Assembly (NCBI GenBank): GCA_029238255.1
Contig: JAQWGK010000046.1
Span: 32,708-96,707 of the forward strand
DNA length: 64,000 bases
Direction of reading: 5' to 3'
DNA from: Porticoccaceae bacterium
GTDB taxonomy: Bacteria; Pseudomonadota; Gammaproteobacteria; Pseudomonadales; Porticoccaceae
The position numbers and the translations under genes were made by a program. The notes below the pieces were generated by a model. That model was not told where the DNA came from, did not search any database, and saw only the letters and a program-made list of their open reading frames with translations. This document shows positions 1 to 27,414 of the stretch, one piece after another. Numbering within the stretch: position 1 is the first letter of the stretch; each line of letters starts with the position of its first letter.

Positions 1-951
1 ATTGAACGGGTTAACTATGGCCTCAACAGCCTCTCCCAAACTCCCTATCTGCTCTCCATAGCCGATACCGAGAGCTTTCTTGGCAACTGGGAGGAATCAC
101 AGGATGCGCTGGAAAATGTCTACTCTATTAACTCTCAAGCCTATGGTGAAACTGATCCGCGAATGCTGCCAGTACTCGACGAACTTCTCGACTGGTATAT
201 GGATACCTACAAAGAGAGAACCCGCGATGGCGGTTATCAGAATTTAGTGATGTCCGAGCGTTTGGGCAATCGTATCTCTAAAATCCTCAAAACCCATGTG
301 CCAATCGACGATCCGGATGCCGTATTGCGATACCGCAAAATCGGTCATCTACACTATTTTATTGCCAAACATATCAAAGAGTATGGTGAGCCCTCGGATT
401 CTGGTTTTACTATCAACTCCGGAGCCACCACAAGCAGCCCAAGGAGTACCTCTCACCTGCACTATCAACGGGGTAAAACGGCGCTAAAGAAAGTCATTGA
501 GTCACTTGATCAACAGCCGAACAGCAGCGCTTCCGACAAAGCCAAAGCTATCGCAGAGCTCGGCGATTGGTATCTGGCATTTGGTCAGCGCATGTCTGCC
601 ACCAAGACTTACAAACTTGCCTTCCAAACACTGGCGGAGAGTGACGAATCACCGCAGCTATCTAAAGCTCTTTTTGATCAACCCAGTGTTATTAAATTTA
701 CGGCTATAGAGGGAAGACAGGAAAGGATAGAACCTCAAGAAAAAAATCTTCAGGTATCTATGACTGTCACTAAAACTGGCGTGCCCATTAAAATGGAAAT
801 TCTCAATCCGCCAGAAAATATTACCAAGAGCGAGATTCGCTCAATTCTAAAAGATATCCGCAGCAAACGTTTTAGACCCAGACTTGTAGATGGAATAACC
901 ACTGAGAGTAAATTTGTATTGCCCTATTCAAGCAAAAAGACACAGGGATAA
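1..951 (+). CDS. 5'-truncated CDS: helical-repeat protein with a TonB_C-like C-terminal domain
   Basis: Frame 1 is open from base 1 with no stop before the listed ORF at 163. Stop is TAA at 949-951. The C-terminal segment LQVSMTVTKTGVPIKMEILNPP...RSKRFRPRLVDG...FVLPY follows the pattern of TonB C-terminal domains. It is the first gene of a tightly packed same-strand cluster. Confidence 0.5.
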   Translation: MERVNYGLNSLSQTPYLLSIADTESFLGNWEESQDALENVYSINSQAYGETDPRMLPVLDELLDWYMDTYKERTRDGGYQNLVMSERLGNRISKILKTHVPIDDPDAVLRYRKIGHLHYFIAKHIKEYGEPSDSGFTINSGATTSSPRSTSHLHYQRGKTALKKVIESLDQQPNSSASDKAKAIAELGDWYLAFGQRMSATKTYKLAFQTLAESDESPQLSKALFDQPSVIKFTAIEGRQERIEPQEKNLQVSMTVTKTGVPIKMEILNPPENITKSEIRSILKDIRSKRFRPRLVDGITTESKFVLPYSSKKTQG

Positions 952-964
952 TAAAATAACCGCG

Positions 965-1750
965 ATGAAAATAATGACTGATAAAAAACTCAGCACAAAC
1001 CTGACAACTGGTTCGCAAAGGCCAGTGATTACAGGTTTGCTTGTCGCTTTAATTTTAGGCCTGTGCGCCTGTTCGATGCCATCACCGACTAATAGCGGTT
1101 CCAGTTCTAGCGGCGGTATGCCCAGCTCTGGTGGAGGCTCAGCAGGTCCTTCAAATCCAGGAGGGGGAGTGCCAAATCCGGGAGGGGGAGCACCAAATCC
1201 AGGAGGGGATGCGGGCGGCAGCACACCACCACCCAGTGGCGGTGGTGGTAGTGCTGGTAATGAAAGCTCTGGGGGTGACAGCTCTGAGGCGGGCGATGAT
1301 TCTTCAGGAGAGTCTATAGAGGGGCTCGATGAAGCTCTCGATGAATCTCTGGAAGATTTCGATGAGGCCGTGCTTGCCGAGGGCAATCGCAACAGTACTG
1401 ATAGCATAGATATCCTCAGCCCCAGCGGCACCAGTGGGGGTATCGACAGCGATGAACCCCTGTTTGAAGAAGCCGGCAGCGGCGATGCTCAGGGCAATGC
1501 CTCAATAGAACAGCGAGCCGCGGAGGGAGCGCCACCCGGGACCGAAGATGGAGAAGGCCAGATCGGCCAAGCTAGCTCCGGGCCGGAACAGGTCGACAGC
1601 GAGATTATTCCAATCCCTGACGATATAGATGATGGTCAGGGTGACGATATTGTTTTACGACAAATTCGTGACGCAGCAATCAAAGAGCGAGATCCGGTAC
1701 TCCGCGAAAAGCTCTGGGATGAATACCGCCGTATAAAGAGTCAAGGGTAG
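965..1750 (+). CDS. Lipoprotein with a Gly/Ser/Pro-rich then strongly acidic low-complexity region and a conserved-looking charged C-terminal helix
   Basis: ATG at 965 lies 13 nt after the upstream stop. A signal peptide ends in the lipobox-like ILGLCAC. GGVPNPGGGAPNPGG repeats are present. The longer ORF from 914 overlaps the upstream gene and is less likely. Confidence 0.55.
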   Translation: MKIMTDKKLSTNLTTGSQRPVITGLLVALILGLCACSMPSPTNSGSSSSGGMPSSGGGSAGPSNPGGGVPNPGGGAPNPGGDAGGSTPPPSGGGGSAGNESSGGDSSEAGDDSSGESIEGLDEALDESLEDFDEAVLAEGNRNSTDSIDILSPSGTSGGIDSDEPLFEEAGSGDAQGNASIEQRAAEGAPPGTEDGEGQIGQASSGPEQVDSEIIPIPDDIDDGQGDDIVLRQIRDAAIKERDPVLREKLWDEYRRIKSQG

Positions 1751-1757
1751 AAAAATA

Positions 1758-2990
1758 ATGACAAGAGTGAAGTTAACTATGAGAAGCGGTAAATCTTTTA
1801 GAGCACCTTTTATTAGCGGACTAAACCTACTAATAACCCTGCTACTGCTTACCACACCAGTAACAACAGCCTATGGTGCCGTAGATAAAATAACCTCTTC
1901 AACCACCCTAACACTGGCAACACCGTCGCGATCATTTCCCATAGAGTCACTGTTAGATGTGGGCATTCCAACCCTTAATGACGGGCTCTATCTCACCGAC
2001 GAAGACGACACAGTTTTTCCCGAAGTTCGCTATGCAGAGGCCATTTACTTCTCCAACCAGCTGGGCAAAGTTTTAGAGAAAAGCGGCGCCTGGGGAGCTA
2101 TTCGAGTGACTCCCAACAGTGATGTGATTATGGATCTGTATATCACCGGCACCATCTTTCAGTCCGATGGGGAAACCATGGATCTGGAAATTAAAGTGGT
2201 CGATAGCAGCGGCAAGCAGTGGCTAAAAAAGCGCTATAAACAAACCACCGGCAAATACGCCTATGACCGGCGCTTAAAAAGCCTCGGCGACCCCTTCCAA
2301 AATCTGTTTATCCGGATTGCCAACGACCTGCTCAAGTATCGTGAAAAAATCAGCGATCAGCGAGCGGAGGAACTGCGCACTATCTCTGAACTGCGATTTG
2401 CCAAAAAATTCTCGCCAGAGGCTTTTGACAACTATGTAGAGGAAGACCGCAAGGGTATTTTGAGTATCTCGCGACTGCCCGCCGAAAACGACAGCATTCT
2501 TATTCGCGTACGCAAAATTCGCGAGCGGGATTATCTCTATGTCGACACCATGCAGGATTACTACGACGGCTTCTCCCAGCAGATGCATCTGGCCTATCAG
2601 GATTTTCGTCGCTCCTCCTACGACTCTGTCGTCAAAGCGCGACAGCTAAATGCTCAGGGCAACCGACAGGTTATCGCCGGTATTGGCGCTATTCTGGCGG
2701 GAATTTACGGCCGCTCTCAGGCCCGCACCAGCATGGCTGATGATGCCGGCACCGCCACCGCTGCAGTCGGTGGTTTTGTGATTAAATCCGGTCTCGACAA
2801 AAAACAGAAAGCCTCGGAATTCAACGAGTCGGTAGCAGAGATGGGCTCCTCTTTAGAAGCGGAAATTGCCCCTCAGGTTATCGAACTGGAAGATCGCACC
2901 GTCACCCTGACCGGCACGGTTCAGGCCCAGTATCAACAGTGGCAGGAACTGCTCGGCAAGATCTATCAGCAAGAGCGCGGAACACCCTAA
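1758..2990 (+). CDS. Secreted hypothetical protein with a Gly/Ala-rich C-terminal segment
   Basis: 410-aa ORF starting 7 nt after the upstream stop. The N-terminal hydrophobic signal-like segment is LLITLLLLTTPVTTAYGA. Glycine-zipper-like stretches (IAGIGAILAGIYG, AAVGGFVIKSG) lie near the C-terminus. Confidence 0.5.
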   Translation: MTRVKLTMRSGKSFRAPFISGLNLLITLLLLTTPVTTAYGAVDKITSSTTLTLATPSRSFPIESLLDVGIPTLNDGLYLTDEDDTVFPEVRYAEAIYFSNQLGKVLEKSGAWGAIRVTPNSDVIMDLYITGTIFQSDGETMDLEIKVVDSSGKQWLKKRYKQTTGKYAYDRRLKSLGDPFQNLFIRIANDLLKYREKISDQRAEELRTISELRFAKKFSPEAFDNYVEEDRKGILSISRLPAENDSILIRVRKIRERDYLYVDTMQDYYDGFSQQMHLAYQDFRRSSYDSVVKARQLNAQGNRQVIAGIGAILAGIYGRSQARTSMADDAGTATAAVGGFVIKSGLDKKQKASEFNESVAEMGSSLEAEIAPQVIELEDRTVTLTGTVQAQYQQWQELLGKIYQQERGTP

Positions 2991-2993
2991 ACC

Positions 2994-4487
2994 ATGGATA
3001 CCAGAAACGCCAAACCGACCAGCGCACATCCGGCTTTTAACGGGCACAGCAACAGCCCGCAAAAACCGCTGAACAGTGGCGCGCGTCAAAATGGGGTTCA
3101 AAAAATTGTTATCTCTGTACTTCTGCTGATCGCCACTGTGGTAATTTTTGTCCTCCCCAGGGGCGTCACCGAACCCTGGATTAACTATTCGGCGCAGACT
3201 GAAAATACCCCCGTTAAGCCAACAGCTACTGAAGTCAGTCCCTCGACAGCGGCAGAAAAAACTAAATACCGGCAAGATGCGCAAACGCTATTGGCGCAGA
3301 TTATTGCCTACCGCGACCGCCTTCAGGAAAAGCGAGTCGAGCTGTGGGGAGAGTTTGAATACAAGCAGGGAATAATGCAGATAGAGCGTGGCGATCAGCA
3401 ATACCAATACGGCGAATACGCTGAATCTGTTGCCAGCTACCAGAGCGCCCTCGACCAGCTAAGCGCTCTTGAGGGCCGAGGAAAAACGATTCTCAGCGAA
3501 GCTATAGACAGCACCGCCAGCGCCATTGAAGAAAATATTCTCAGCACCGCTACCACCGCTATAGAACTGGCCAACGCCATGGCTCCCGACAGTAAGCAGG
3601 TGCAACAGCTCAGCCAGCGAGTAGCCAACTTGCCGCAGCTAATCGAAGCGATGCAACTGGGCGAAAAGCTTAGCGCACGCAGCCAACTCAGCGCTGCCAA
3701 AGAAGCATTTAATAACGCAGTTAAACTGGATCCAGAACATAAAAAAGCCGCCGCTGCACTGGCTAAAACCAACCAGAAAATCACCGAACAGCGCTTTCGT
3801 GGTTTTATGAGTGAAGGCTTTAGCGCACTGGATAAGGATAACTTTGTCGAAGCCAAAGCGGCATTTAATCGAGCCGCCACAGTCTATACCGACCACCCTG
3901 CTGTGGCGCAGGCACTGGCACAGCTAGAGACACGCCGCTCGCAACTCTGGGTGACCAGTAATATGGCCCGTGCCGCGGAATTTGAAGCGCAGGAACAATG
4001 GCAGCGTGCCAAAACGGTCTATCAAAAACTGTTACTCGCTGATAGCAGTCTCACCGATGCCAAAGTTAAACAGATTCCGGTGGCCGTGCGCGCCGATTTG
4101 GATAAGCGTATCAACGCTATTATCGAAGACCCTCTCGCGCTTTCAGCTAGTAGCCAATTTCGCAAAGCCCAGCAAGCCCTGCAAGATGCTTCGGGCATTG
4201 CCACTCCCGGCCCAGTGTTAAAACAACAGATTGCCAGTCTCAGGGAGATTCTTAAAGCCTCCCAAACACCGGTAGAGATCGCCCTGACCTCCGACAGCAA
4301 TACAGAGGTCACCTTATTTAGAGTCGCCAAGCTCGGCACCTTTGATAAAACCTCGGTGGCCCTAAAACCCGGCCGTTATATAGTCGCCGGCACCAGAAGC
4401 GGCTATCGGGATGTACGGATTGAATTTACCGTCACCGGCAAAGGCTTCGACACACCGATCAGCATTAGCTGCAATGAGGCTATTTAG
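2994..4487 (+). CDS. Bitopic membrane protein with a periplasmic TPR-like helical region and a PEGA-like beta-sandwich C-terminus
   Basis: Starts 3 nt after the upstream stop. One TM helix (VISVLLLIATVVIFVL) follows a basic N-terminus. Ala/Gln-rich helical repeats follow. The C-terminal LKPGRYIVAGTRSGYRDVRIEFTV resembles a PEGA motif. Confidence 0.5.
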   Translation: MDTRNAKPTSAHPAFNGHSNSPQKPLNSGARQNGVQKIVISVLLLIATVVIFVLPRGVTEPWINYSAQTENTPVKPTATEVSPSTAAEKTKYRQDAQTLLAQIIAYRDRLQEKRVELWGEFEYKQGIMQIERGDQQYQYGEYAESVASYQSALDQLSALEGRGKTILSEAIDSTASAIEENILSTATTAIELANAMAPDSKQVQQLSQRVANLPQLIEAMQLGEKLSARSQLSAAKEAFNNAVKLDPEHKKAAAALAKTNQKITEQRFRGFMSEGFSALDKDNFVEAKAAFNRAATVYTDHPAVAQALAQLETRRSQLWVTSNMARAAEFEAQEQWQRAKTVYQKLLLADSSLTDAKVKQIPVAVRADLDKRINAIIEDPLALSASSQFRKAQQALQDASGIATPGPVLKQQIASLREILKASQTPVEIALTSDSNTEVTLFRVAKLGTFDKTSVALKPGRYIVAGTRSGYRDVRIEFTVTGKGFDTPISISCNEAI

Positions 4488-4605
4488 AATTTAATGGGTT
4501 ATAAATAAAGAGGAAAAGCTCTAGAGAAAAATTTAAACACCAAAGGGAATCAGAGGCCATACTGATATCACGCAAGCCTCACTGACAAAAATATAATTAC
4601 AAACT

Positions 4606-6684
4606 ATGGTCGATAAAAAAGACGCCCAACCACTGACTGCAACCGACTTTACGCCGCTAAAAAGCAAGGCGCAAAAGCGTGGCACCCGACCGTCTGCGGC
4701 ACTGCTGTTAACCACCTTATTCACCGTGGTCGCACTGGTAATTCTAATATTCTTATTTGCCGCACGGGCCATTATCCTGCGCCTCGACCCAACCACTGCG
4801 GTGGTTGATATTAGCGGCCTGAGCTTTCATATTGGTGATAACTATCTTCTGTTACGCGGAGAGCATCAACTCAGTGCCGAAGCTCCGGGCTATTTCCCTC
4901 TAAGTAAAACCATAGAGGTCACCGATCAGGCCACCCAGGAGATCGACGTCGAGCTGCAGCCCTTGCCGGGCAATCTTTTGGTCAATGCCAGCCTCAGTGA
5001 GATAGAGGTATTTATTGACGACCAGTTAGCGGGCACAGTGCCGGGAACTCTCGAAGGCATTAGCCGCGGCGCCCACAAACTCGAATTTAAAAAATACCGC
5101 TATTTCCCCCTGCAACAGGAAGTCGAAATCGAAGGGCTGGGTAAAACTCAGGCCATCGACATTTCCCTGCAACCGGCCTGGGGGCATATTGATTTCATAT
5201 CCGATCCGACCGGTGCAGAGCTGTATATTGATAATCGCCTAATCGGCACAACCCCAATTTCAGCGGAAGTACTGGAAACCGGAAGTCAGCTAACCCTGAA
5301 AGCCAGCGGCTATAAAACCCTGCAACAGCAGGTAACCGTTAAAGCCGGCAGCAAAGCTCAACACCCATTGATCGAAATGATCGTTGCCGATGGCACCCTG
5401 TCTATCAACAGCTCTCCTGCGGGCGCCAGCATTACCATTGATCAACAATTCGCCGGTGTCAGCCCTTTAACCGTTGATGTAGCCCCCTTTGCAAAGCATA
5501 GAGTCGAGCTATTTCTCGAGGGCTATCTAAAAGCCAGCCGCACCCTGCAGGTAAAACCCCAGCAGCAGGCGGAGCTCAGCGTCGACCTCAGACCCAATAT
5601 AGGCACGGTGCAGCTTACAGTCAGTCCCGCAGATGCGGTGGTTAAAGTAGATGGCAAGCCATATAGCAGTGGCAGCCAGACCCTGTCTCTCAATGCCAAG
5701 CCCCACAGCATTAGCGTGGAAAAGCCCGGCTACCAGACCAAATCCATCAGTATCACCCCCAGACCCGCCCATCAGCAGGCATTGACCATCAAACTGCTAA
5801 CGCTGGAGCAGGCCTACTGGGCATCTCGTCCGCCACAGCTAAAGAGCTCAGTGGGTATCAACTTAAAACTCTTCCGCCCCGATCCACAGCAGCCGTTTAT
5901 GCTCGGCGCACCGCGACGCGAGCCGGGCAGACGAGCCAATGAAGCGGAGCGCTCCGTCGCCCTGCAGCGACCCTTTTATCTGGCCACCCATGAAACCACC
6001 AATGCCCAGTACCGGCAGTGGAAAGAGCAACACAGCTCTACCGCCATTAAGGGTCAGACCCTGGATATGAATGATCAGCCAGCCGTCAAAGTCAGCTGGG
6101 AAGATGCCGCGCTATTCTGTAACTGGTTGAGCCGCAGAGAGGGTTTAGCACCGTTCTACAAGGTCGAGCAGGGTCGGGTTACCAGCTTTAACTGGGATGC
6201 TCCCGGCTACCGACTGCCTACCGAGGCGGAATGGGCCTGGGCAGCAAAAATTGATCTGCAGTCGAAAAGCCATATATTCCCCTGGAGCAATGACCTCTAT
6301 CCGCCGCAGGAGATCACCGACAACTACGCGGATAAAAGCGCCAGCGCTTTTCTGACCTTTACCCTGCCCAACTACAATGACCAGTATCCAGTATCGGCGG
6401 TGGTGGGTAGTTTTGAAGCCAACAGCAAAGGGCTCTACGAAATCAGCGGCAATGTCGCTGAATGGGTCAATGACTACTTTGATATCCGCCCAAGCCGCGG
6501 CGAACCTCAACTCGATCCTCGGGGTCCACAGCAGGGCAATAAACATGTGATTCGCGGTGCCAGCTGGGCTCTGGCCTCACGCACAGAGTTGCGTCTTAGC
6601 TACCGAGATTCCGGCAACGATGGACGCATTGATCTGGGCTTTAGAATCGCCAGATATGTTGATAAACCCGGAAGTGATCTATGA
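4606..6684 (+). CDS. Bitopic membrane protein: multiple PEGA repeats fused to a C-terminal FGE-sulfatase (SUMF1/EgtB/PvdO) fold domain
   Basis: N-terminal TM helix LLLTTLFTVVALVILIFLFAA. Repeated PEGA-like motifs (AEAPGYFPL, FKKYRYFPLQQEV, LKASGYKTLQQQV, LEGYLKASRTLQV, VEKPGYQTKSISI). C-terminal FGE-fold signatures (RLPTEAEWAWAA, GNVAEWVNDYF, IRGASWA, LGFRIARY). Confidence 0.75.
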   Translation: MVDKKDAQPLTATDFTPLKSKAQKRGTRPSAALLLTTLFTVVALVILIFLFAARAIILRLDPTTAVVDISGLSFHIGDNYLLLRGEHQLSAEAPGYFPLSKTIEVTDQATQEIDVELQPLPGNLLVNASLSEIEVFIDDQLAGTVPGTLEGISRGAHKLEFKKYRYFPLQQEVEIEGLGKTQAIDISLQPAWGHIDFISDPTGAELYIDNRLIGTTPISAEVLETGSQLTLKASGYKTLQQQVTVKAGSKAQHPLIEMIVADGTLSINSSPAGASITIDQQFAGVSPLTVDVAPFAKHRVELFLEGYLKASRTLQVKPQQQAELSVDLRPNIGTVQLTVSPADAVVKVDGKPYSSGSQTLSLNAKPHSISVEKPGYQTKSISITPRPAHQQALTIKLLTLEQAYWASRPPQLKSSVGINLKLFRPDPQQPFMLGAPRREPGRRANEAERSVALQRPFYLATHETTNAQYRQWKEQHSSTAIKGQTLDMNDQPAVKVSWEDAALFCNWLSRREGLAPFYKVEQGRVTSFNWDAPGYRLPTEAEWAWAAKIDLQSKSHIFPWSNDLYPPQEITDNYADKSASAFLTFTLPNYNDQYPVSAVVGSFEANSKGLYEISGNVAEWVNDYFDIRPSRGEPQLDPRGPQQGNKHVIRGASWALASRTELRLSYRDSGNDGRIDLGFRIARYVDKPGSDL

Positions 6685-6935
6685 TCGGTTGCAGCAAAAA
6701 TCAAAACAGAATTTGCAGTTTTTGGCTGGCACTTTCTATCTTGGCGACAGTCTTTTTTCCAGCGACTGCCTTTTCAGTAGAGACAGAAGAGACCGGAGAA
6801 AACCCCGCCGAGTCATTGCCCGAAAATAACAGTCAGGGGGATCAGGCCGAACAACCGCCAGAGGCCCCTGAGGACTTTAAGCCTAGCGAAGAGATCTCCG
6901 AAGACTTCCCGGTTCCTCTTCCATCAGATATCTAA
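6681..6935 (+). CDS. Small secreted acidic protein
   Basis: ATGA start/stop overlap with the upstream gene implies translational coupling. Signal-like segment ICSFWLALSILATVFFPATAFS. Acidic, proline-rich mature part. Confidence 0.45.
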   Translation: MIGCSKNQNRICSFWLALSILATVFFPATAFSVETEETGENPAESLPENNSQGDQAEQPPEAPEDFKPSEEISEDFPVPLPSDI

Positions 6936-6968
6936 CAAGCCCTTTTTTACAAACTTAGGAATACTCAA

Positions 6969-7763
6969 ATGAAAAGTCATACCAATGAGATGTTCTTCCA
7001 ATTAATCGCCCTGCTACTGGCAGTGATTGTTGTGCACGCGATCTTTGTCACCGTCGTGCGCCCCAATGCCGAGAGCACCATTCGCCAACACGCCGAGATG
7101 GCTGCCGCAGGTGAAGCCTACGAAGTACCGCGATCATTCTTTATTGTGATCAAAGACTTCGAGCAGGAAGCCTGTTTTATTCTAATGTTCTGGGCTCTGG
7201 CCATCATGGGTTACAAAACCCGCAGTGCCATGAACGAACAAAAAATGTTCGCCACACAGTTGGTCTCAATTAGCGAGGGCTCGAGGGTCTTGCCCGAGGA
7301 TGCCAGTCAACTGGCAAGGCCACTGCAATCTCTGCCGGAGGATCAACGGCCGCTACTACTGCCCCGGGCACTGCAAACCGCCCTGACCCGATTTCAGGTG
7401 ACCGACAGTGTTCAGTCCGCAACCGATGCGGTCAATACAGTGTGCAGCAATGAAAATGATCGTCTCGACTCGGAACTGTCGATGGTTCGCTATATCACCT
7501 GGGCAATTCCCTCGATTGGATTTATCGGCACAGTACGCGGTATAGGTGCGGCACTGGGTCAGGCTCATGAAGCCATGGAAGGCAATATTGCCGGCGTTAC
7601 CAGCAGCCTTGGAGTAGCCTTTAACTCAACCTTTATCGCCCTGCTAATCAGTATGGTGGTGATGTTTTTTATGCACCAGCTACAACTTATTCAGGAGCGA
7701 CTGGTACTGGATTCCCACGCCTACTGTGAAAACAATCTGCTGCGATTTTTAAAAGCGAAATAA
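6969..7763 (+). CDS. MotA/TolQ/ExbB proton-channel family protein
   Basis: AGGA sits upstream of the ATG. The C-terminal signature WAIPSIGFIGTVRGIGAALG...SSLGVAFNSTFIALLISMVVMFFM matches the conserved TM2-TM3 hairpin of the ExbB/TolQ/MotA family. An N-terminal TM helix is also present. Confidence 0.8.
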   Translation: MKSHTNEMFFQLIALLLAVIVVHAIFVTVVRPNAESTIRQHAEMAAAGEAYEVPRSFFIVIKDFEQEACFILMFWALAIMGYKTRSAMNEQKMFATQLVSISEGSRVLPEDASQLARPLQSLPEDQRPLLLPRALQTALTRFQVTDSVQSATDAVNTVCSNENDRLDSELSMVRYITWAIPSIGFIGTVRGIGAALGQAHEAMEGNIAGVTSSLGVAFNSTFIALLISMVVMFFMHQLQLIQERLVLDSHAYCENNLLRFLKAK

Positions 7764-7766
7764 ACC

Positions 7767-9083
7767 ATGAGCACTGCTGTTCTCGAACTTAATGATCAGG
7801 CGCTACTGATTAAAACTCAGGCCGGTGAAGTCTATTCCGAGCCGGGCTTTGCCCTGCATACAGAACAGGGCATTATCACCGGTCTTCCCGCCCGTCAGCA
7901 GGCCTGGCTACAGCCGCAAAATATCTATCGCGAGTACTGGCGACAACTCAATCAGGCACCGCTGTCTGGCGATCAGCAGTGGGCCCGCCATCACGCCGAT
8001 ATCGCCTATGCCCAGCTGCACAGTCTGCTGACCAAAGCCGGTACCCCTGAGCAGTTAGTACTCTGCGTTCCCAGTACATTCGATGATCAGCAACTATCAC
8101 TATTGCTTGGCTTAATAGATGCTATCAACACAACCGTAGTCTCAGTGATAGATAGCAGTCTCGCCAACTGTCTGTATCTGGAGGACTATATTGAAAATCT
8201 TCAGACTATTCAGGCAGCGGAAAAACAGACCCTGCATATTGATTTACAGATGCACCAAATGGTTGTCAGTCAGATTAGTTTTGAGCGCAACAGTCTGCGT
8301 ATTGAAGCTCATCAGGTGATTCCGGATCTAGGTGCCAGCCATATCTTCAATGCCCTCGCCGGCTATATCAGAGATCTGGCAATCAAAACCCATCGCTTTG
8401 ACCCACTGCATACCTCCGAGGGCGAACAGGCTATTTATGATCAACTTCCCAGTCTGGTGGCGCGCTTTGGCGGTATCTCTGAATGCGACCTAAGCCTCAG
8501 CTCACCGCGAGGAGATCTACCGATGCTACTGCGCAAGAGCGAAATCGAAGCGCTACTGGAACCCCGCCTGCAGAGCTTAACTCGACTGATCAGCAACAGT
8601 GCCGCCGCGGATATCACCCTCTCCCACAACACAAAATTGATCCCTGCCCTGCACTCAGGTTTTAGCCACGCACGACAACTCAATGAGACTCAGGCGGTTG
8701 ATAACTGCCTAAGGTCTTACGACAGCCTTTTAAAGCACAGCGAAAATCTTCACCGTATTACCTCATTTGAGCAAAAAGTTACCTATAGCGGCAGGCGCAA
8801 AACAGATATAGCACCACCAAAACCGGCCACCCATCTGCTCTATCAGGGTCGAGCCTGGCCCCTAAACGAGCCCCTCAGTATTGGGATAGATGGCAAGCGT
8901 CTGAATATTACTCAGTTAGTCGACAGCAGCGCGGCACTGGTTGTCTCAATCAATAACCACAGCCTCAATATTCTCTATCGCGACAACCAGATTTCAATAG
9001 AACTGCCAGAGAGCGCCGCACCCGGTGGGAAAATTTTTATCGGTGACTTTCGACTGCAATTAATCGAGGTCTGCAATGGCTAA
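7767..9083 (+). CDS. Cytoplasmic protein with a degenerate actin/Hsp70-like ATPase fold and a possible FHA-like C-terminus
   Basis: No signal peptide or TM helix. LVLCVPSTFDDQQLSLLLGLIDAINTTVVSVIDSSLANCLYL parallels the Hsp70/actin-fold segment (vitVPa.f.d.qr...ag..v..li.Ep.AA). The N-terminal AVLELNDQAL replaces the phosphate-1 DxG motif. The C-terminal LSIGIDGKRLNI...KIFIGDFRLQLIEV looks FHA-like. Confidence 0.4.
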   Translation: MSTAVLELNDQALLIKTQAGEVYSEPGFALHTEQGIITGLPARQQAWLQPQNIYREYWRQLNQAPLSGDQQWARHHADIAYAQLHSLLTKAGTPEQLVLCVPSTFDDQQLSLLLGLIDAINTTVVSVIDSSLANCLYLEDYIENLQTIQAAEKQTLHIDLQMHQMVVSQISFERNSLRIEAHQVIPDLGASHIFNALAGYIRDLAIKTHRFDPLHTSEGEQAIYDQLPSLVARFGGISECDLSLSSPRGDLPMLLRKSEIEALLEPRLQSLTRLISNSAAADITLSHNTKLIPALHSGFSHARQLNETQAVDNCLRSYDSLLKHSENLHRITSFEQKVTYSGRRKTDIAPPKPATHLLYQGRAWPLNEPLSIGIDGKRLNITQLVDSSAALVVSINNHSLNILYRDNQISIELPESAAPGGKIFIGDFRLQLIEVCNG

Positions 9084-10134
9084 GAAGCGCCGCAATATTG
9101 CCTTTAGTCTCTCCTTTCTGGACATTATGGCCTGTGGCTTTGGTGCGGTAACTCTGCTGTTTTTAATTCTTCGCCACAATGCCACCGAAATTGAACTACC
9201 TGACCCCAGACTGGCCTCGGAAGTCGATCTGCTGCAGGAAGATATTCGTCAGGCGGAAGAGGAAAAGATCGAACTACTAAATAGCCTTGAACAGTTGCAA
9301 CTGCAGCTAGTCACTGCACAGGGTGCTTCTGAAAGAGTGATTACCGATCTTCAGGAGCAGGAAAAAAGCATTCAGGCCGACCCCAAAGATGATATTGCCA
9401 AACTGCGCCGTCAAGTAGAGCAACTGGAAAAAGAAACCGCGCAGATGGAAGAGGTTGAGTTTGGCGACAAGGTCCGCGAATTTCTTGGGGATGGCAATCG
9501 CCAGTACCTCACCGGCCTTAAACTCGGTGGCGAGCGGGTAATGATTCTTGTGGATGGTTCGGCCAGCATGCTCGCCGATACCGTGGTCAATGCCGTGCGC
9601 CGGCGCAATATGGATGACAGCCTAAAAAAGCAGTCGCCAAAATGGGTATGGACCCTGCGCACCGTCGAGTGGCTGCTTGCCCAACTGCCACCGAGCAGTC
9701 GCTTTCAGGTCTATATCTTTAACACCGGCACCGAGCCAGCAGTTATCGGCACTGAGGGTGAGTGGCTGGATGCTGCAGATTCTCTGGCACTGGAAAAAGC
9801 CGTCGAGGGACTGCGCAATTATTCACCGGGCAATGGCACCAGCCTTATCAATGCTATTGCCGCAGTCAATGACTTTGAAAACAAACCGGACAATCTGTTT
9901 TTACTCACCGACGGATTGCCTACTCAGGGCGCCAGCGCACCGAAAAAATATATGGTCAGCGGCCGCCAGCGCCGCGACTTCTTTGCCGCCGCAGTGAATA
10001 GCCTGCCGCGAGGTATTCCGGTCAATACGATCTTATTCCCAATGGAGGGTGACCCGGAAGCCGCCGCGATGTTCTGGCAACTGGCACTAAATACACAGGG
10101 CGCCTTTATTGCCCCCTCGCGAGACTGGCCATGA
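9076..10134 (+). CDS. ExbD/TolR-like TM anchor + coiled coil + periplasmic vWA domain with an intact MIDAS
   Basis: 8-nt overlap with the upstream gene. The basic N-terminus KKRRN is followed by SFLDIMACGFGAVTLLFLIL, with an Asp at the TM entry as in ExbD FIDVMLVLL. A heptad-rich, Glu/Gln/Leu-rich segment follows. The vWA motifs are VMILVDGSASM (DxSxS), GNGTSL and LFLLTDGLP. Confidence 0.7.
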   Translation: MAKKRRNIAFSLSFLDIMACGFGAVTLLFLILRHNATEIELPDPRLASEVDLLQEDIRQAEEEKIELLNSLEQLQLQLVTAQGASERVITDLQEQEKSIQADPKDDIAKLRRQVEQLEKETAQMEEVEFGDKVREFLGDGNRQYLTGLKLGGERVMILVDGSASMLADTVVNAVRRRNMDDSLKKQSPKWVWTLRTVEWLLAQLPPSSRFQVYIFNTGTEPAVIGTEGEWLDAADSLALEKAVEGLRNYSPGNGTSLINAIAAVNDFENKPDNLFLLTDGLPTQGASAPKKYMVSGRQRRDFFAAAVNSLPRGIPVNTILFPMEGDPEAAAMFWQLALNTQGAFIAPSRDWP

Positions 10135-11120
10135 AACGCCAACGCCGAGCCTCTCAGGAAGCCAGCATTTCATTTTTGGATGTTATCAGCTGTGGCTTTG
10201 GCGCTATTGTCCTATTGCTGGTGATAGCCCGAGTTGGCGATCCCGCCGCCCTTGAACAGGCGGAAAATAAACTGCGCGCCACGGTAAAAGAGTATCAGGA
10301 GCGCCTGTTTGATGTGCGCGGTGAATCCGTCGTGCTTAACGAACAGCTTAAATCCCGCAAGGAACAGCTCTCCGATCTCACCGAGCGTGTAGCCCGCCTG
10401 AAAGCCAAACTGGCCAGTGTTGAAAAGCAGTCCGTGCAGATATCCCAGTCCGAAGCGCGGGAAAAAAAGCAGTTGCAGCTAGTGATGCAGGTTCTCAGTG
10501 AAGAAATGGAGCGCCTGCTCGGCCCGGAGTTTAAACAGCAGAATAAATTGATTGGCGGTATTCCAGTCGACAGTGACTATATTATTTTTGTGATCGACAC
10601 CTCCGGTAGTATGCAGGTCGCGGCCTGGGAAAAGGTCAAAAAAGAGATGATCAATATTCTCGATATTTACCCGGATGTTAAAGGCCTGCAGGTGCTCAAT
10701 GATATGGGCCAGTATATGTTCTCCGCCTACCGTGGACGCTGGATACCAGATAGCCCGGAAATGCGTCAAACCATCGTCACCACTTTAAACACCTGGGCGC
10801 CCTTTAGTAATTCCAGTCCGGTTGAGGGCATTAATGCAGCGATCCAGACTTTTTACAAAGCCGACCGCAAGATCAGTATCTACACCCTCGGCGATGACTT
10901 TCAGGGTCGCTCTATTCGCAATATAGTCAAAGCCATCGACCGGTTAAATCAGGCCCACCGCGGCGCCGACCGGCTGGTGCGTATTCATGCCATAGGCTTT
11001 CCTGTGCACTTTCCACCGGGCGGAACTCCCAGCGCCTCAGCAATTAAGTTCGCCGCTCTTATGCGTGAACTAAGCTATAACAATGGGGGAACCTTTATTG
11101 GCCTTAACAGCCTTAATTAA
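10131..11120 (+). CDS. Paralogue of the upstream gene: ExbD/TolR-like TM anchor + coiled coil + vWA domain with a partly degenerate MIDAS
   Basis: ATGA overlap with the upstream gene. KRQRR is followed by SFLDVISCGFGAIVLLLVI. A coiled-coil-like segment follows. The vWA motif is YIIFVIDTSGSM (DxSxS), but the later MIDAS positions differ (SSPVEGINAAI, IYTLGDDF). Confidence 0.7.
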   Translation: MKRQRRASQEASISFLDVISCGFGAIVLLLVIARVGDPAALEQAENKLRATVKEYQERLFDVRGESVVLNEQLKSRKEQLSDLTERVARLKAKLASVEKQSVQISQSEAREKKQLQLVMQVLSEEMERLLGPEFKQQNKLIGGIPVDSDYIIFVIDTSGSMQVAAWEKVKKEMINILDIYPDVKGLQVLNDMGQYMFSAYRGRWIPDSPEMRQTIVTTLNTWAPFSNSSPVEGINAAIQTFYKADRKISIYTLGDDFQGRSIRNIVKAIDRLNQAHRGADRLVRIHAIGFPVHFPPGGTPSASAIKFAALMRELSYNNGGTFIGLNSLN

Positions 11121-11133
11121 AGGAATCATAATT

Positions 11134-11748
11134 ATGCAGCTATCTAAACTATCAATTATCACCGGCCTTTTTGCCCTGCTATTCATCACTGGCTGCAGCT
11201 CATCGGCACAGGTTCAGGTGGACCGAAACTTCCCGACCGTGGTCTCAAAACCCAAAGCGGTCAGCGCCTCGATTATTTTTAACGACGAATTTAAAGACTA
11301 TGTAGCCACACCGAGCAAGAAAACCACTATCGATATAGGCGCAGCTCAAACCCTTATGCTCGGTAATGCCTTTGCCGGGCTGTTTAGCAATATTGAATTT
11401 GTTCAGTCCAAAGATCAGGTAAGCCTTGAAAATGCGCTGGTAATCACCCCATCGGTTCAGGAAGTTCAGGTCTCCACACCCTCAGATACCTATTTAAATG
11501 TCTATGAAGTGTGGATCAAATACAGCCTCGATATTGAAAACTCACAGGGCGATCAGATCGACAGCTGGTTTATGCCCGCCTACGGCAAGACACCAGACTC
11601 TTTTATGCTGTCAAAAACCAATGCCATTGAAGAAGCGGCCGTTATCGCCCTGCGCGATGCCGGCGCCAAATTACTTCTCGACTTCTACCGTATCCCCAGT
11701 ATCTACAATTGGATGCTACGGGAGCAAAAGCTGGGAGGGGAACAGTGA
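11134..11748 (+). CDS. Lipoprotein, hypothetical
   Basis: ATG at 11134 is preceded by AGGA and lies 13 nt after the upstream stop. MQLSKLSIITGLFALLFITGCSS is a signal peptide plus lipobox. The listed longer ORF from 11083 overlaps the upstream gene. Confidence 0.6.
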   Translation: MQLSKLSIITGLFALLFITGCSSSAQVQVDRNFPTVVSKPKAVSASIIFNDEFKDYVATPSKKTTIDIGAAQTLMLGNAFAGLFSNIEFVQSKDQVSLENALVITPSVQEVQVSTPSDTYLNVYEVWIKYSLDIENSQGDQIDSWFMPAYGKTPDSFMLSKTNAIEEAAVIALRDAGAKLLLDFYRIPSIYNWMLREQKLGGEQ

Positions 11749-12410
11749 ATAAATTTTTCCCACTGCTTATAGCAGCACTAACAACCGCTCTACTCACCGG
11801 CTGCGGTGCCACCACCAGCATCGATGAATACCGTCCAAACAATAATATTATGGAAATTAATAGCGATGAATCGGTGGTTATCCTCGGGCGCAGAGATGCT
11901 GGACATTACGATACGGATAGGGAATTTATCAGCTGTATCGGATCGAAAATGCAGGGCGCGGATATTAGCGTTATGCCCGAACAGCAGTTTATCGACTCTA
12001 TCTACCCCTGGTTTGAACCACGCACCGCACCCAAGGGGTTAAAGCGTTTAACCTATTTAATGAAAGACCCGGATATCAAAAGTCAGGTCGACCGACAGGG
12101 TGTCCGCTATCTGGTATGGCTCGATGGTTCAACCCAAACCCTTGAACAGGGCGGTTCCATTAGCTGCGCGATAGGCCCAGGAGCCGGTGGCTGTTTCGGC
12201 TTTGCCCAGTGGGAAAAAAGCTCTATTTATGAAGCTATAGTCTGGGACCTGAACGACTTTAGTGAAAAGGGCCGACTCCGTGTAGACTCCTCTGGAACCT
12301 CGTACCTGATTGGCGCCGTGGCACCTATACCGCTTTTAACACCGGTCAAAAAAGATGCCTGTAGCAGTCTTGGCAAACAGCTAAAAAAATTTTTTAGCGT
12401 AGATAACTAG
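11745..12410 (+). CDS. Lipoprotein, hypothetical
   Basis: GTG at 11745 overlaps the upstream stop (GTGA) and is preceded by GGGAGGGG. VNKFFPLLIAALTTALLTGCGA is a signal peptide plus lipobox. Confidence 0.55.
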   Translation: MNKFFPLLIAALTTALLTGCGATTSIDEYRPNNNIMEINSDESVVILGRRDAGHYDTDREFISCIGSKMQGADISVMPEQQFIDSIYPWFEPRTAPKGLKRLTYLMKDPDIKSQVDRQGVRYLVWLDGSTQTLEQGGSISCAIGPGAGGCFGFAQWEKSSIYEAIVWDLNDFSEKGRLRVDSSGTSYLIGAVAPIPLLTPVKKDACSSLGKQLKKFFSVDN

Positions 12411-12432
12411 CAGATAAGTAAATGGTGATTCA

Positions 12433-13863
12433 GTGAGACGTTTAAATTTTCAGCTGACTTTTTCTGTTCTATTGTGGGCATCAATGCTCACAGTTGCCTT
12501 AATGCCAGTGCCACTGGCGGCAAAAACTACCGGCGAAGATATCTACAAAGAAGTGCTGCAATCGACGCCCATTTACGACGACCCAGTCCTCGATAGCTAT
12601 ATCAAAGAGCTCGGTAATGAAATTGTCGCCCAGTCGGAAATGGCCGGCGAAGAATTTACCTTTACCCTGCTCGACTCACCAGACCTCAATGCCTTTGCCA
12701 CCCGCGATAACTATGTCTACGTCAACCGCGGCCTGCTCAACTATGTTAGCAACGAGGCACAGCTAGTCTCGGTACTCGCCCACGAAGTCGGGCATATCAC
12801 CAGAAAACATGTCACCGGCCAGGAGGGCAAGGCAACCGGTGCACAGATTCTATCGACCATCGCCGCCGTGCTCTCCGGCAGCGGTGAAGTCTACGAAGCC
12901 GGTATGGCTTACGCCAATTCAATTATCCGCGGCCATGGTCGTCGCAACGAACTCGAAGCCGACGAAGCCGGTGCCGAATATATGGCCAAGCTCGGCTACT
13001 CGCCCAGCGAAATGATCAGCATGCTATCGATTATGAAAGACTACGAAATACTGCAAAAAGATCGCGCCAAAGCCAGGGGAGCAAGCAAGCAGACCTATCA
13101 TGGTATTTTTGCCAGCCACCCGCGCAATGATTCGCGACTGCGAACCGTGGTCAGCAAGGCCCAGCGCCTGCAGTCGACCGAGACCCGCGGCGATGGCGCC
13201 GCCAGATATCGGGAACTCACCGAAGGACTAATCTGGGGCGAAAACTTTCTCGCCAAAGAGAAAAAACCCGAGCGCTACTCGGATATGAAACTGCGGGTAC
13301 GCTTTGATTACCCAAAAGACTGGACTCAGACCAATAATGCCAGCCAACGCAGTTCGGTGGGCACGCCTGAGAGCAAAGAGGCCAAACTCAGCATGACACC
13401 GATTGCGCGCACCGCCCAGAGTCCTGAAGAATATCTCTACAACTTTCTCAAGGCGGCAAAACTCGAACAGGGCAGCGCCATCTCCCCTGCCGGGCTAAAG
13501 GGTTTTAGCGGCATTTTGCCCGGTGGTGAAAGTGGTCCCGACCAGCGTATTGCGGTTATCTATTACAAACTCAATGCCTTTGTATTTAAGGGTGAAGTGG
13601 ATAAACCGGCGCAGTTTGCCGACACCGATAAACTGTTTGTCGAATCGATTAAAAGCTTTCGACCCATTTCACGCCGTGAAATCGCCGGCCAGAAACCGAA
13701 AACCATTCACTATGTGAAAGCCACCAATGCCACCAACTTCGACGCGTTGGGCAAGGCACTGAATCTTAACGCCACGGAATTAGATGATCTGCGTATAATC
13801 AATGGTCATTACCCCAGCGGCGAGCCAGTGGCCGGCGATTGGATAAAAATCTTTAAACAGTAA
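12433..13863 (+). CDS. M48-family zinc metallopeptidase, secreted, with a possible LysM-like C-terminus
   Basis: Signal peptide. The HExxH motif occurs in LAHEVGHITRKH with a downstream E (NELEADEAG), as is typical of M48 peptidases. GTG start lies 22 nt after the upstream stop. Confidence 0.75.
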   Translation: MRRLNFQLTFSVLLWASMLTVALMPVPLAAKTTGEDIYKEVLQSTPIYDDPVLDSYIKELGNEIVAQSEMAGEEFTFTLLDSPDLNAFATRDNYVYVNRGLLNYVSNEAQLVSVLAHEVGHITRKHVTGQEGKATGAQILSTIAAVLSGSGEVYEAGMAYANSIIRGHGRRNELEADEAGAEYMAKLGYSPSEMISMLSIMKDYEILQKDRAKARGASKQTYHGIFASHPRNDSRLRTVVSKAQRLQSTETRGDGAARYRELTEGLIWGENFLAKEKKPERYSDMKLRVRFDYPKDWTQTNNASQRSSVGTPESKEAKLSMTPIARTAQSPEEYLYNFLKAAKLEQGSAISPAGLKGFSGILPGGESGPDQRIAVIYYKLNAFVFKGEVDKPAQFADTDKLFVESIKSFRPISRREIAGQKPKTIHYVKATNATNFDALGKALNLNATELDDLRIINGHYPSGEPVAGDWIKIFKQ

Positions 13864-13885
13864 AAACTTTTACAGCGAAACTCAC

Positions 13886-14620
13886 GTGACTCTTAAAACC
13901 CCCAGACAATTTTTTCTACTGCTGATTATTCTAATGCTGATTTTTGGCGCACTTTTGGGTCTTGGCTACTGGCTTAAAGACACTGATCAGAGCGAAGAGA
14001 ACTGGGCTATGGATCGGCTGACTCAACCGGATAACGCCGAGCTGCAAAGCCGTATAAACAGCAAACTATTTGCAGATAAAATGGTCGATGTGCCCGGTAT
14101 AGGCGCGGATATAGACAACACCATAGATGAGTCTGCCATGGAGGCCAAACTGGCCGGCTTAACCAAAAATGTGACTACAGAAAAAATCCCTACAGCTTCA
14201 CAACTGGAAGGTTTTTATCAACTGAACAAAGATAATTATCGTGAGCCATCGAAACTCTGGCTGTGGGTGGATACCTTTAGCAACGCTCGTTTCGGGGGTC
14301 AGGTTTTCGAAAAAGCACAGCAGGCACTGGATACTTTAGCTATTGAAAGTTCAACCCCAGAGGGTGATCTATTCGATCGCTACGGGGCTATATTATCGAC
14401 GGAGTTAGATGAGAAATATGGCCGCGCATTTACCGACAAGTTGCTGTCGCTAATCGCAGACAGCGAATCACTACCCTGCTGGGCAGGGCCAATAAGCTCG
14501 CCTATTGGCGCACATCTGGTCTGTGTAAAGAAAATAGACTGGGGAACTTACCCAGCCATTGATGAGATAAAATCTCAGCTTATCAATGACTGGCGTTTTT
14601 CAGTGGCAACCGAAAGCTAA
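13886..14620 (+). CDS. Membrane-anchored protein with a parvulin/PpiC-like C-terminal region (tentative)
   Basis: GTG start lies 22 nt after the M48 gene. N-terminal TM helix FFLLLIILMLIFGALLGLGYW. The C-terminal WAGPISSPIGAHLVCVKKI resembles the PpiC rotamase motif. Confidence 0.35.
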   Translation: MTLKTPRQFFLLLIILMLIFGALLGLGYWLKDTDQSEENWAMDRLTQPDNAELQSRINSKLFADKMVDVPGIGADIDNTIDESAMEAKLAGLTKNVTTEKIPTASQLEGFYQLNKDNYREPSKLWLWVDTFSNARFGGQVFEKAQQALDTLAIESSTPEGDLFDRYGAILSTELDEKYGRAFTDKLLSLIADSESLPCWAGPISSPIGAHLVCVKKIDWGTYPAIDEIKSQLINDWRFSVATES

Positions 14621-14628
14621 ATAAAACG

Positions 14629-23558: not shown

Positions 23559-23582
23559 TCTTTTTAAATTTTTCTTAAACCC

Positions 23583-25583: not shown

Positions 25584-25675
25584 AAATCTTTTATCCTTAA
25601 AAGTTTTTCTGCACTGTTTTTCTGAGAAGTTTTCCTGAGAAGCTTTTCTGACAAGCTTTTCCAAAAAGCAGACTC

Positions 25676-27208: not shown

Positions 27209-27247
27209 GGTTATTCCTTTTCTTTTTCTCGACCCTGAGCACTTTCA

Positions 27248-27402: not shown

Positions 27403-27414
27403 ATAAGTGGACCT

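Follow-up and report, generated by a model that had tools for sequence, protein, structure and literature searches.

We analysed a 64,000-nt stretch of DNA from a Porticoccaceae bacterium (GCA_029238255.1, contig JAQWGK010000046.1, positions 32,708-96,707 of the forward strand; hereafter the window, whose own numbering is used for all coordinates). At its start lies a conserved cluster of 13 genes that we read, with moderate confidence, as a trans-envelope force-transducing machine, Tol-Pal-like and housekeeping in character, built on a TolQ/ExbB-type 5:2 ion-driven motor. Few machines are known to be driven by such motors: flagella, Ton, Tol-Pal, Agl-Glt, type IX secretion (T9SS) and gliding, and Zorya. 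By its features the locus is a well-defined new member of the TolQ-like/TPH-vWA class, a 'second family' of putative force transducers published with Idiomarina loihiensis as reference organism (Mol Biol Evol 2025;42(6):msaf138; PMC12204202). The cluster occupies most of a run of 14 successive + strand open reading frames (ORFs) at 1-14620, numbered g01 to g14:

g01, 1-951, + strand: secreted tetratricopeptide repeat (TPR) protein with a TonB_C-like domain, truncated at its 5' end by the start of the window
g02, 965-1750, + strand: acidic lipoprotein
g03, 1758-2990, + strand: protein with a signal-peptide-like N-terminus
g04, 2994-4487, + strand: bitopic TPR protein
g05, 4606-6684, + strand: bitopic PEGA/FGE-like protein
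g06, 6681-6935, + strand: small secreted acidic protein
g07, 6969-7763, + strand: MotA_ExbB-family channel subunit
g08, 7767-9083, + strand: cytoplasmic Hsp70-like protein
g09 (vWA1), 9076-10134, + strand: membrane-tethered vWA protein
g10 (vWA2), 10131-11120, + strand: membrane-tethered vWA protein, paralogue of g09
g11, 11134-11748, + strand: lipoprotein
g12, 11745-12410, + strand: Cys- and Trp-rich lipoprotein
g13, 12433-13863, + strand: secreted M48 metalloprotease
g14, 13886-14620, + strand: membrane-anchored, weakly parvulin-like protein

From g01 to g14 the junctions measure 13, 7, 3, 118, -4, 33, 3, -8, -4, 13, -4, 22 and 22 nt, reproducing the coordinates and junctions of the 12 tightly packed same-strand genes that a preliminary description of this DNA had reported at 1-12410. 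The suggestion that two downstream genes share the unit holds for the M48 gene g13, a conserved member found directly after g12 in 67 related loci, and is not supported for g14, which lies downstream only in 10 closely related Porticoccaceae loci. The conserved unit is 13 genes (g01-g13), not 12, because it includes g13. Topology was called with a hydropathy and lipobox script, which agrees with the earlier assignments: g08 cytoplasmic, g07 polytopic, a single helix after a basic tail in g04, g05, g09 and g10, lipoboxes in g02, g11 and g12, and signal-peptide-like N-termini in g03 and g06. One cytoplasmic and five inner-membrane proteins thus stand beside secreted proteins and lipoproteins.

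The best-conserved gene of the cluster is g07. Its product matches MotA_ExbB (PF01618) in Pfam with an E value of 6.8e-14 (52.2 bits against a cut-off of 22.9) over residues 134-246, the TM2-TM3 core in ExbB numbering, and TolQ in NCBIfam with E 7e-7. The Pfam match, lying above threshold, substantiates the MotA/TolQ/ExbB-family channel proposed at this position. Two motifs, WAIPSxGFIGTVRGI (containing T188) and SLGxAFNSTFxAL (containing T221), are invariant in 21 sequences, one of them verrucomicrobial. We take their GTV and NST, by motif resemblance, to be the probable equivalents of the Thr pore motifs of TolQ/ExbB (T145 and T178 in TolQ). The cytoplasmic part of the protein is small, at ~87 aa plus a 28-aa C-terminal tail. 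By analogy with characterised channels, g07 is presumed to be the pentameric part of a 5:2 motor.

The g09 protein combines a basic tail, an ExbD/TolR-like trans-pore helix, a helical stalk of ~95 residues, a periplasmic vWA domain with a full metal ion-dependent adhesion site (MIDAS), and a C-terminal Asp-Trp-Pro (DWP). In an alignment of 22 relatives (30-73% identity), D16, C20, G23, S162 and D279 are invariant. The helix carries the motif SFLDxxxCGFGA, in which D16 is the Asp, and this Asp (residue 17 in g10) is also kept in 80-86 orthologues of g09 and g10; the MIDAS is conserved as DxSxS (Ser162), T, and Asp279 within TDGLPT. In an AlphaFold2 (AF2) model of g09, residues 14-34 form a helix, long helices occupy 44-136, and 154-345 fold into an alpha/beta domain whose predicted local distance difference test score (pLDDT) is 85-93. 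Foldseek against the PDB returned only vWA domains as top matches, with E from 2e-9 to 1e-5 (ITIH1 at 2e-9, BatB at 6e-8, CLCA1, CMG2), and a single-sequence PDB search with g09 returned nothing useful. The paralogue g10 has the same architecture at ~28% identity, an N-terminal helix called by the topology script as SFLDVISCGFGA, and a MIDAS variant (DTSGS, NSSPVEG, GDD) that is at least 97% conserved in 80 orthologues. By sequence, the vWA domain of both proteins falls below the Pfam threshold. The vWA domains proposed for the two ORFs are upheld, in g09 by AF2 and Foldseek and in g10 by sequence and MIDAS motifs only.

Neither g09 nor g10 matches ExbD/TolR (PF02472) in Pfam or NCBIfam at E up to 0.1, and no cluster protein matches a tolR, exbD or motB family in those collections. 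Only the helix of g09 and g10 is ExbD-like, and the periplasmic part is a helical stalk and a vWA domain, not an ExbD/TolR domain. The idea that the Asp-bearing helices are ExbD/TolR-type partners fits the invariant Asp and SFLDxxxCGFGA motif and the absence of a tolR/exbD gene. Membrane-anchored vWA proteins encoded beside TPR proteins are also found in the Bat aerotolerance operons of Bacteroides and Leptospira, and the structures that the g09 vWA domain matches best include BatB (3ibs) and a B. fragilis homologue (4jdu). However, those operons carry MoxR and DUF58 genes and no MotA/ExbB channel, and BatA and BatB lack an Asp-bearing ExbD-like helix and a coiled-coil stalk. The free C-terminal DWP is near-invariant in the g09 family, and two TPR proteins are encoded in the same operon. 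Because the conserved tripeptide occurs beside these TPR proteins, we speculate that it docks into the TPR of an operon-mate.

These properties are those of the published class, in which vWA genes are tethered by a transmembrane helix, mostly form heterologous pairs, and are tightly linked to tolQ-like genes without tolR or exbD (PMC12204202). The class proteins have a TolR/ExbD-like trans-pore helix with a conserved Asp, the two Asp lie within the Thr ring of a TolQ-like pentamer in AlphaFold3 (AF3) models, and the class ranges mainly over Proteobacteria and Verrucomicrobia (PMC12204202, Fig. 4c,d). Likewise, the MotA_ExbB gene is here linked to vWA genes without tolR, exbD or motB, an arrangement shared by ~80 loci; the vWA genes are a heterologous pair; the Asp-bearing trans-pore helices contain neither a His nor the SHLS motif of TonB/TolA; and the C-terminal periplasmic fold is vWA, seen in the structure model for g09 and in sequence and motifs for g10. 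The invariant GTV and NST of g07 would correspond to the Thr ring by the resemblance assumed above. A tolQ-like gene stands beside two heterologous vWA genes, with Asp helices and, by that resemblance, channel Thr, in Proteobacteria and Verrucomicrobia in both cases; the cluster is likened to the class by its described features, and the paper covers the motor core only, not the 10 further genes that are co-conserved here.

The preliminary description had called the machine undescribed. For the core this does not stand, because PMC12204202 describes exactly such TolQ-like/vWA modules, from genomics and AF3 models and with no assigned function; for the accessory set it does, within the literature searched. 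The text and supplements of that paper make no mention of Hsp70, DnaK or PEGA, and its main text has no actin-like protein, sulfatase-type domain or M48. An mBio 2025 survey of MotAB mentions neither vWA partners nor such an accessory set, and our literature searches found no other paper on the TolQ-like/vWA class. As far as could be found in the literature, the 10-gene accessory complement is undescribed: the g08 protein resembling an Hsp70 nucleotide-binding domain (NBD), g05 with five PEGA stretches and an FGE-like domain, the TPR and TonB_C protein g01, the bitopic TPR protein g04, four to five lipoproteins, and the M48 protease g13. The statement that no experimentally characterised system matches the cluster also stands.

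A species scan, in which the g09 alignment was searched against one genome per species, found relatives in at least 595 species genomes. Of these at least 595, the best 80 belong without exception to the Cellvibrionales type, with Porticoccaceae, Halieaceae, Microbulbifer, Congregibacter variabilis, Halioxenophilus aromaticivorans, Kineobactrum and Exilibacterium. More distant relatives occur in Verrucomicrobia (Opitutaceae, Puniceicoccaceae, Candidatus Pelagisphaera phototrophica) and in Methylophaga. To assess synteny, the window proteins were compared by BLASTP with every ORF of 84 related loci. The order and strand of g01-g13 are kept in essentially every locus that is long enough, and the order holds across about 80 Cellvibrionales species. 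In 40 of the 46 loci of at least 19 kb, from several Cellvibrionales families, g02-g13 are complete and colinear, more than chance would give; the neighbourhoods of g07 homologues likewise show identical gene order. Median identity is highest for g07 (60%), g10 (53%) and g09 (49%), all three strongly conserved in sequence, and lowest for g08 (30%) and g01 (25%). Near-identical Cellvibrionales-type clusters also turned up in metagenome-assembled genomes labelled Rhodothermales, Cryomorphaceae, Saprospiraceae, Phenylobacterium and Enterobacteriaceae (L008, L028, L033, L062, L066 and L084); these oddly labelled contigs are probably mis-binned rather than signs of real horizontal spread.

Reduced loci reveal which parts belong together. 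In Candidatus Pelagisphaera phototrophica (CP076039, 1513262-1534326; locus L085) the module consists of g07-g08-g09-g10 only, and a second locus (L086) has g02-g03-g04-g05-g07-g09-g10, without g01, g08 and g11-g13. In four Cellvibrionales loci (L026, L028, L033, L036) g08 is truly missing: g07 abuts g09 and the remaining cluster is intact. Throughout the loci examined, g09 and g10 always co-occur. Because of these reduced and g08-less loci, we identify g07, g09 and g10 as the invariant core, and g08 and the periplasmic and lipoprotein set as separable add-ons. The g09/g10 pair is ancient, since Verrucomicrobia carry separate orthologues of each. The four-gene module of L085 lies directly downstream of the dcw/ftsQAZ cell-division cluster, and a divergent gene for a Gly-zipper_YMGG lipoprotein adjoins it, a setting that might point to some connection with division or the envelope.

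The inner-membrane scaffolds among the accessories are g04 and g05. In the g04 protein a basic tail leads into the helix (residues 37-55), and beyond it come periplasmic TPR (TPR_2, Pfam E 1.5e-6) and a C-terminal beta-rich domain; the protein is conserved in 67 loci. In Pfam, five stretches of the g05 protein match PEGA (E 6.6e-48), and it also matches FGE-sulfatase (E 4.6e-36), so that the PEGA-FGE protein recognised earlier at 4606-6684 has both its domains. Its best NCBIfam match is GldK/PorK (TIGR03525; E 3.6e-26, 92.4 bits against a cut-off of 350), confined to the FGE-like domain, and the other gliding-related match, GldJ, is also far below its cut-off. It has an inner-membrane anchor helix and no lipobox. 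At the catalytic site, which we take from the human and bacterial formylglycine-generating enzymes (FGE) to be a CxxxxC with two catalytic cysteines (here positions 655-660), the cysteines are present in 0 of 70 orthologues; the single Cys of the window copy is residue 505. Because the pair is absent from all 70, the FGE-like domain is non-catalytic, and a true formylglycine-generating enzyme is ruled out.

The secreted proteins and lipoproteins are more idiosyncratic. Full-length g01 orthologues are ~410-520 aa long with a hydrophobic N-terminus, and the window copy is 5'-truncated. The protein has a weak Pfam TPR_12 match and no Pfam match for its TonB_C-like domain; a profile of 19 orthologues matches TPR proteins and, at positions ~350-420, solved TonB2/TonB C-terminal domains (2k9k at E 1.8e-6; 6i97 and 6fip at ~1e-4). 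This profile bears out the TonB_C-like domain suggested for 1-951 and, with the Pfam TPR of g04, the presence of TPR proteins in the operon. TonB/TolA transducers unite on one chain an N-terminal transmembrane helix with an SHLS/His motif, a Pro-rich or helical linker and a TonB_C/TolA_III domain. Unlike in these, the TonB_C-like domain of g01 follows a signal-peptide-like segment and TPR, with no SHLS helix. The g02 protein, whose lipobox LCAC spans residues 33-36, is a very acidic, Gly/Ser-rich low-complexity lipoprotein in which a C-terminal helix is conserved; it occurs in 55 related loci and has no Pfam or NCBIfam family. The g03 protein has a signal-peptide-like N-terminus and a Gly-rich hydrophobic segment near its C-terminus, and also occurs in L086. 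Most g03 orthologues carry the consensus LxGC, a lipobox; because the signal peptide of the window copy has no Cys, the protein would be soluble and periplasmic in this lineage and lipid-anchored elsewhere.

The small acidic g06, with a hydrophobic N-terminus and a start that overlaps the g05 stop (ATGA), diverges fast and keeps its position, as an ORF of 72-120 aa at the same place in other loci; it has no Pfam, NCBIfam or PADLOC family. The lipoproteins g11 (lipobox ITGC, conserved in 75 loci) and g12 (lipobox LTGC) have, like g03, no relative in Pfam, in NCBIfam or, by profile, in the PDB. In g12, C64, C141, C150 and C206 are invariant, along with several Trp and Pro residues. The g13 protease matches Peptidase_M48 in Pfam (E 1.4e-31), and its best NCBIfam match is BepA (NF052400; E 3e-32, 112 bits against a cut-off of 570). 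This match makes its protease domain BepA-like without making g13 an orthologue of BepA: full-length BepA is M48 plus C-terminal TPR, and the match is limited to residues 32-250. The membrane-anchored g14 shows only a parvulin-like match below threshold (Rotamase_2, E 0.022).

The one cytoplasmic protein, g08, has no signal peptide and no transmembrane segment. It has no Pfam or NCBIfam family, Hsp70 included, and a single-sequence PDB search gave nothing useful. An AF2 model built from 31 homologues has a mean pLDDT of 85.4, and its Foldseek matches are all Hsp70/DnaK NBDs (E ~5e-18, target TM 0.67-0.74), followed in g08 by a small extra C-terminal beta domain. The actin fold assigned earlier to 7767-9083 is therefore confirmed as an Hsp70-NBD-like (actin/ASKHA) fold. 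Hsp70 chaperones bind nucleotide through the phosphate-1 loop DxGTT (DLGTT), the phosphate-2 loop DLGGGT and the adenosine loop GGxxxP, and they have a substrate-binding domain as well. In g08 the N-terminal motif that never varies reads ELNDQ, and conserved Gly-rich loops for phosphate or adenosine are lacking. Because ELNDQ replaces DxGTT and the Gly-rich loops are not conserved, g08 is probably Hsp70-like in fold and not a canonical ATPase. Of 78 loci, 74 retain g08, as does the verrucomicrobial four-gene module.

The domains, folds, motifs, topology, synteny and distribution described above are direct observations, and they suggest the following mechanism. By analogy with the solved ExbBD, TolQR and MotAB complexes, five g07 subunits would form the channel, and a g09/g10 heterodimer would insert its two ExbD/TolR-like helices into the pentamer, with the proton- or sodium-binding Asp of each helix facing two invariant Thr rings of g07. 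Ion flow would then rotate the g09/g10 dimer relative to the pentamer. The helices would run straight into the ~95-residue stalk, probably a heterodimeric coiled coil ~14 nm long; g09 and g10, which lack both the periplasmic domain of TolR and a separate TolA/TonB partner, would be axle and transducer at once. At the far end, the MIDAS sites of the two vWA heads would grip a periplasmic or outer-membrane partner. Likely candidates are the inner-membrane scaffolds g04 (TPR) and g05 (five PEGA and a non-catalytic FGE-like domain), the secreted TPR-TonB_C adaptor g01, and the outer-membrane-directed lipoproteins g02, g03, g11 and g12. The M48 protease g13 may process some component or serve its quality control, and g08, frequent but dispensable, may act on the motor from the cytoplasm by regulating or positioning it. 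Such a machine would use ion power to pull on or organise outer-membrane lipoprotein complexes in marine Gammaproteobacteria. The earlier idea of a Ton/Tol-like energiser with a periplasmic vWA output is supported by the invariant Asp helix and Thr motifs, the vWA fold, the lack of tolR/exbD and the conserved operon, and it coincides with an independently published prediction (PMC12204202).

Tol-Pal is one of the closest known systems. Both combine a MotA/ExbB/TolQ-family channel with partner helices that bear an Asp, and both have a helical transducer across the periplasm, a TPR protein, outer-membrane lipoproteins, a TonB/TolA-type C-terminal domain (here in g01), no outer-membrane beta-barrel in the operon, and a housekeeping chromosomal location. 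They differ in that the TolR and TolA functions are here fused on one chain of pore helix, stalk and head, and the head is vWA/MIDAS rather than TolA domain III. The cluster has no TolB beta-propeller and no Pal OmpA-like domain, and it has extra PEGA/FGE-like and Hsp70-like parts; g07 is also too divergent to match TolQ structures. The cluster adjoins trpBA and nrdJ, with propionate metabolism genes nearby, and no relatives were found on 72,556 plasmids or 50,697 phages. A housekeeping role is argued for by this neighbourhood, by the absence from plasmids and phages, and by inheritance that looks vertical and colinear.

Several points weigh against this account. No phenotype has been reported for any member of the class (PMC12204202), and the identity of the vWA ligand is something that we infer, as we do stoichiometry, rotation, the coiled coil and the physiological role. 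In PDB searches with the single sequence and with a profile, g07 matched no solved MotA, ExbB or TolQ chain, leaving the Pfam profile as the one thread that would tie it to solved motor channels; it may be too divergent for a PDB match, or may have been filtered out as a membrane protein. The proposed stoichiometry and helix insertion derive from published AF3 models of other family members. The AF2 model of g09 has pLDDT below 50 for much of residues 82-147, and because of this low stalk confidence a coiled coil is not established. Among the cluster proteins we found no outer-membrane beta-barrel and no peptidoglycan-binding domain. Finally, accessory sets vary by lineage, from the four genes of L085 to L086 without g01, g08 and g11-g13, so that the motor does not strictly require them.

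A bolder version, which we think less likely than not, is that the 13 genes would be one complete, unrecognised trans-envelope machine of marine Gammaproteobacteria, akin to Ton and Tol-Pal and the third such housekeeping system. Here the rotary TolQ-like pentamer would turn a heterodimeric coiled-coil axle whose MIDAS sites form integrin-like, force-bearing bonds to acidic partners, the disordered lipoprotein g02 or the small g06, on a GldK-like PEGA/FGE scaffold, with g08 as a degenerate Hsp70-like pseudo-ATPase gating the motor from the cytoplasm and a BepA-like protease providing quality control.

The same parts could work the other way round. The lipoproteins, together with the PEGA/FGE and TPR scaffolds, might hold the vWA heads fixed in the periplasm, as the peptidoglycan-binding domain of MotB fixes the flagellar stator, so that the g07 pentamer rotates around the g09/g10 dimer and acts on g08, the true output or sensor. 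The placement of g08 between channel and axle (3 nt after g07, with an 8-nt overlap with g09) suits this arrangement, as do its wide retention, including in the minimal verrucomicrobial module without periplasmic accessories, and its confidently predicted NBD fold with an added beta domain. We nevertheless think it unlikely: g08 is absent from the four Cellvibrionales loci and from L086, all of which keep the periplasmic set, it ranks low in conservation within the cluster, no canonical ATP-binding loops can be recognised in it, and the cytoplasmic part of g07 is small.

The force-transducing machine proposed here also shares parts with surface-adhesion and gliding machines such as Agl-Glt of Myxococcus or GldLM/T9SS of Bacteroidota, and the motor could move a vWA adhesin or a GldK-like ring for movement, attachment or secretion. 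Composition speaks for this reading. Agl-Glt likewise has a TolQ-like channel, a heterologous TolR-like pair (AglQ/AglS), several TPR proteins, TonB_C proteins (GltG/J) and a vWA protein (CglB) (PMC3169522; PMC9946355). Among curated families, the FGE-like domain of g05 comes nearest to GldK/PorK, a ring lipoprotein of the T9SS, and gliding is itself raised as an option for vWA transducers (PMC12204202). GldLM/PorLM with the GldK/PorK-GldN/PorN ring has a 5:2-type motor, as proposed here, whose dimeric partner extends a long periplasmic stalk toward a scaffold with a non-catalytic protein of FGE-sulfatase fold.

Yet the details diverge, and we give this reading little credence. AglQ and AglS are short TolR-family proteins and the Agl-Glt vWA sits on a separate outer-membrane lipoprotein, whereas here vWA is fused to the pore helices, and no Glt beta-barrels occur in the cluster. 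GldL is not a member of the Pfam MotA_ExbB family and GldM has no vWA; g05 is anchored in the inner membrane and carries PEGA repeats, whereas GldK/PorK is an outer-membrane lipoprotein, and the T9SS belongs to another host phylum. Pfam and NCBIfam searches found no outer-membrane beta-barrel, secretin, SprA-like translocon or surface adhesin in the cluster, and no Glt or gliding model in NCBIfam matches except GldK and GldJ, far below cut-off (92 against 350 bits for GldK). The tether that holds the vWA heads to the inner membrane is only ~95 residues long, too short for them to get to the cell surface. Most hosts are planktonic marine Cellvibrionales, which are not known to glide. An Agl-Glt 'core complex' of no known function, encoded in one operon, has been described in Gammaproteobacteria, in Cellvibrionales-type bacteria (Luciano et al. 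2011, PMC3169522). We considered whether the cluster is this complex and rejected it on the description given there, with short TolR-type AglQ/AglS and no fused vWA (PMC3169522).

A Zorya-type anti-phage or conflict system, in which a MotA-like/axle motor senses envelope perturbation and signals to effectors, is very improbable. The g07 protein has very weak matches to ZorA (E 0.01 in PADLOC, 0.028 in NCBIfam), and vWA and FGE-like domains recur in conflict systems. Against these stand the lack of any significant PADLOC match among the 10 proteins scanned, the absence from Pfam and NCBIfam results of a nuclease, NTPase or other effector, the absence from NCBIfam and PADLOC results of ZorB, ZorC, ZorD or ZorE, strong purifying selection on the core proteins, the housekeeping neighbourhood, and a distribution that is colinear across whole families rather than patchy. 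ZorA, moreover, has a long cytoplasmic tail where the C-terminal tail of g07 is ~28 aa, and the peptidoglycan-binding domain of ZorB and the ZorC/D or ZorE effectors have no counterpart here. A mobile or defence element is ruled out by this neighbourhood together with 0 of 72,556 plasmids and 0 of 50,697 phages carrying relatives. It is scarcely credible that the cluster is an FGE/sulfatase-maturation or other enzymatic pathway with loosely associated motor genes, as the Pfam FGE-sulfatase match of g05 might suggest, given the missing catalytic cysteines, the absence of a sulfatase gene within the cluster, the non-enzymatic GldK and GldJ as closest curated relatives, and the strict linkage to the motor genes.

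The remaining features concern the edges of the cluster and its surroundings. We regard g01 as the first gene because the gene 5' of it is divergently oriented in two related loci. The 118-nt gap between g04 and g05 (4488-4605) is a peculiarity of this lineage; in other loci g04 and g05 directly adjoin or overlap. A promoter and terminator scan of 1-15500 gave counts no higher than in shuffled sequence, a promoter-like site in that gap (4582-4610) was no better than shuffled expectation, and Rfam found no RNA element within the cluster. Further along the window, the B12-dependent ribonucleotide reductase NrdJ is split over two + strand ORFs, 17333-19486 (717 aa) and 19539-20222 (227 aa), the latter matching the C-terminal part (positions 574-759) of the PRK08665 model, a split that we take to resemble that of nrdJa/nrdJb in Pseudomonas. 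The - strand at 22569-29550 carries a block of MeaB, propionyl-CoA carboxylase and methylmalonyl-CoA mutase genes. These are followed by a TonB-dependent receptor (38332-40638, - strand), an AsmA-family protein (41127-43145, + strand), and a single tRNA (44573-44645), an ordinary chromosomal context. A 1191-aa PilY1 beta-propeller protein (46762-50337, - strand) comes next, with small ORFs after it that are probably type IV minor pilins (50350-51886, - strand).

The locus is of interest because the cluster offers candidate partners and tractable hosts for work on the function of its motor class. It places the motor of a class without assigned function in a strictly conserved 13-gene operon of Cellvibrionales that spans every envelope compartment, and it sets the core apart from two accessory modules, one being the cytoplasmic Hsp70-like protein, the other the periplasmic and lipoprotein set. 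The cluster thereby supplies a parts list and candidate interaction partners for the class, and cultured carriers with complete genomes are at hand in Congregibacter variabilis IMCC43200, Halioxenophilus aromaticivorans KU68F and Microbulbifer spp. It also raises the question of whether a MIDAS site can be the force-bearing link of a bacterial motor. If the bolder version above is true, the machine would power a specific outer-membrane process, for example the organisation of lipoproteins or outer-membrane proteins.

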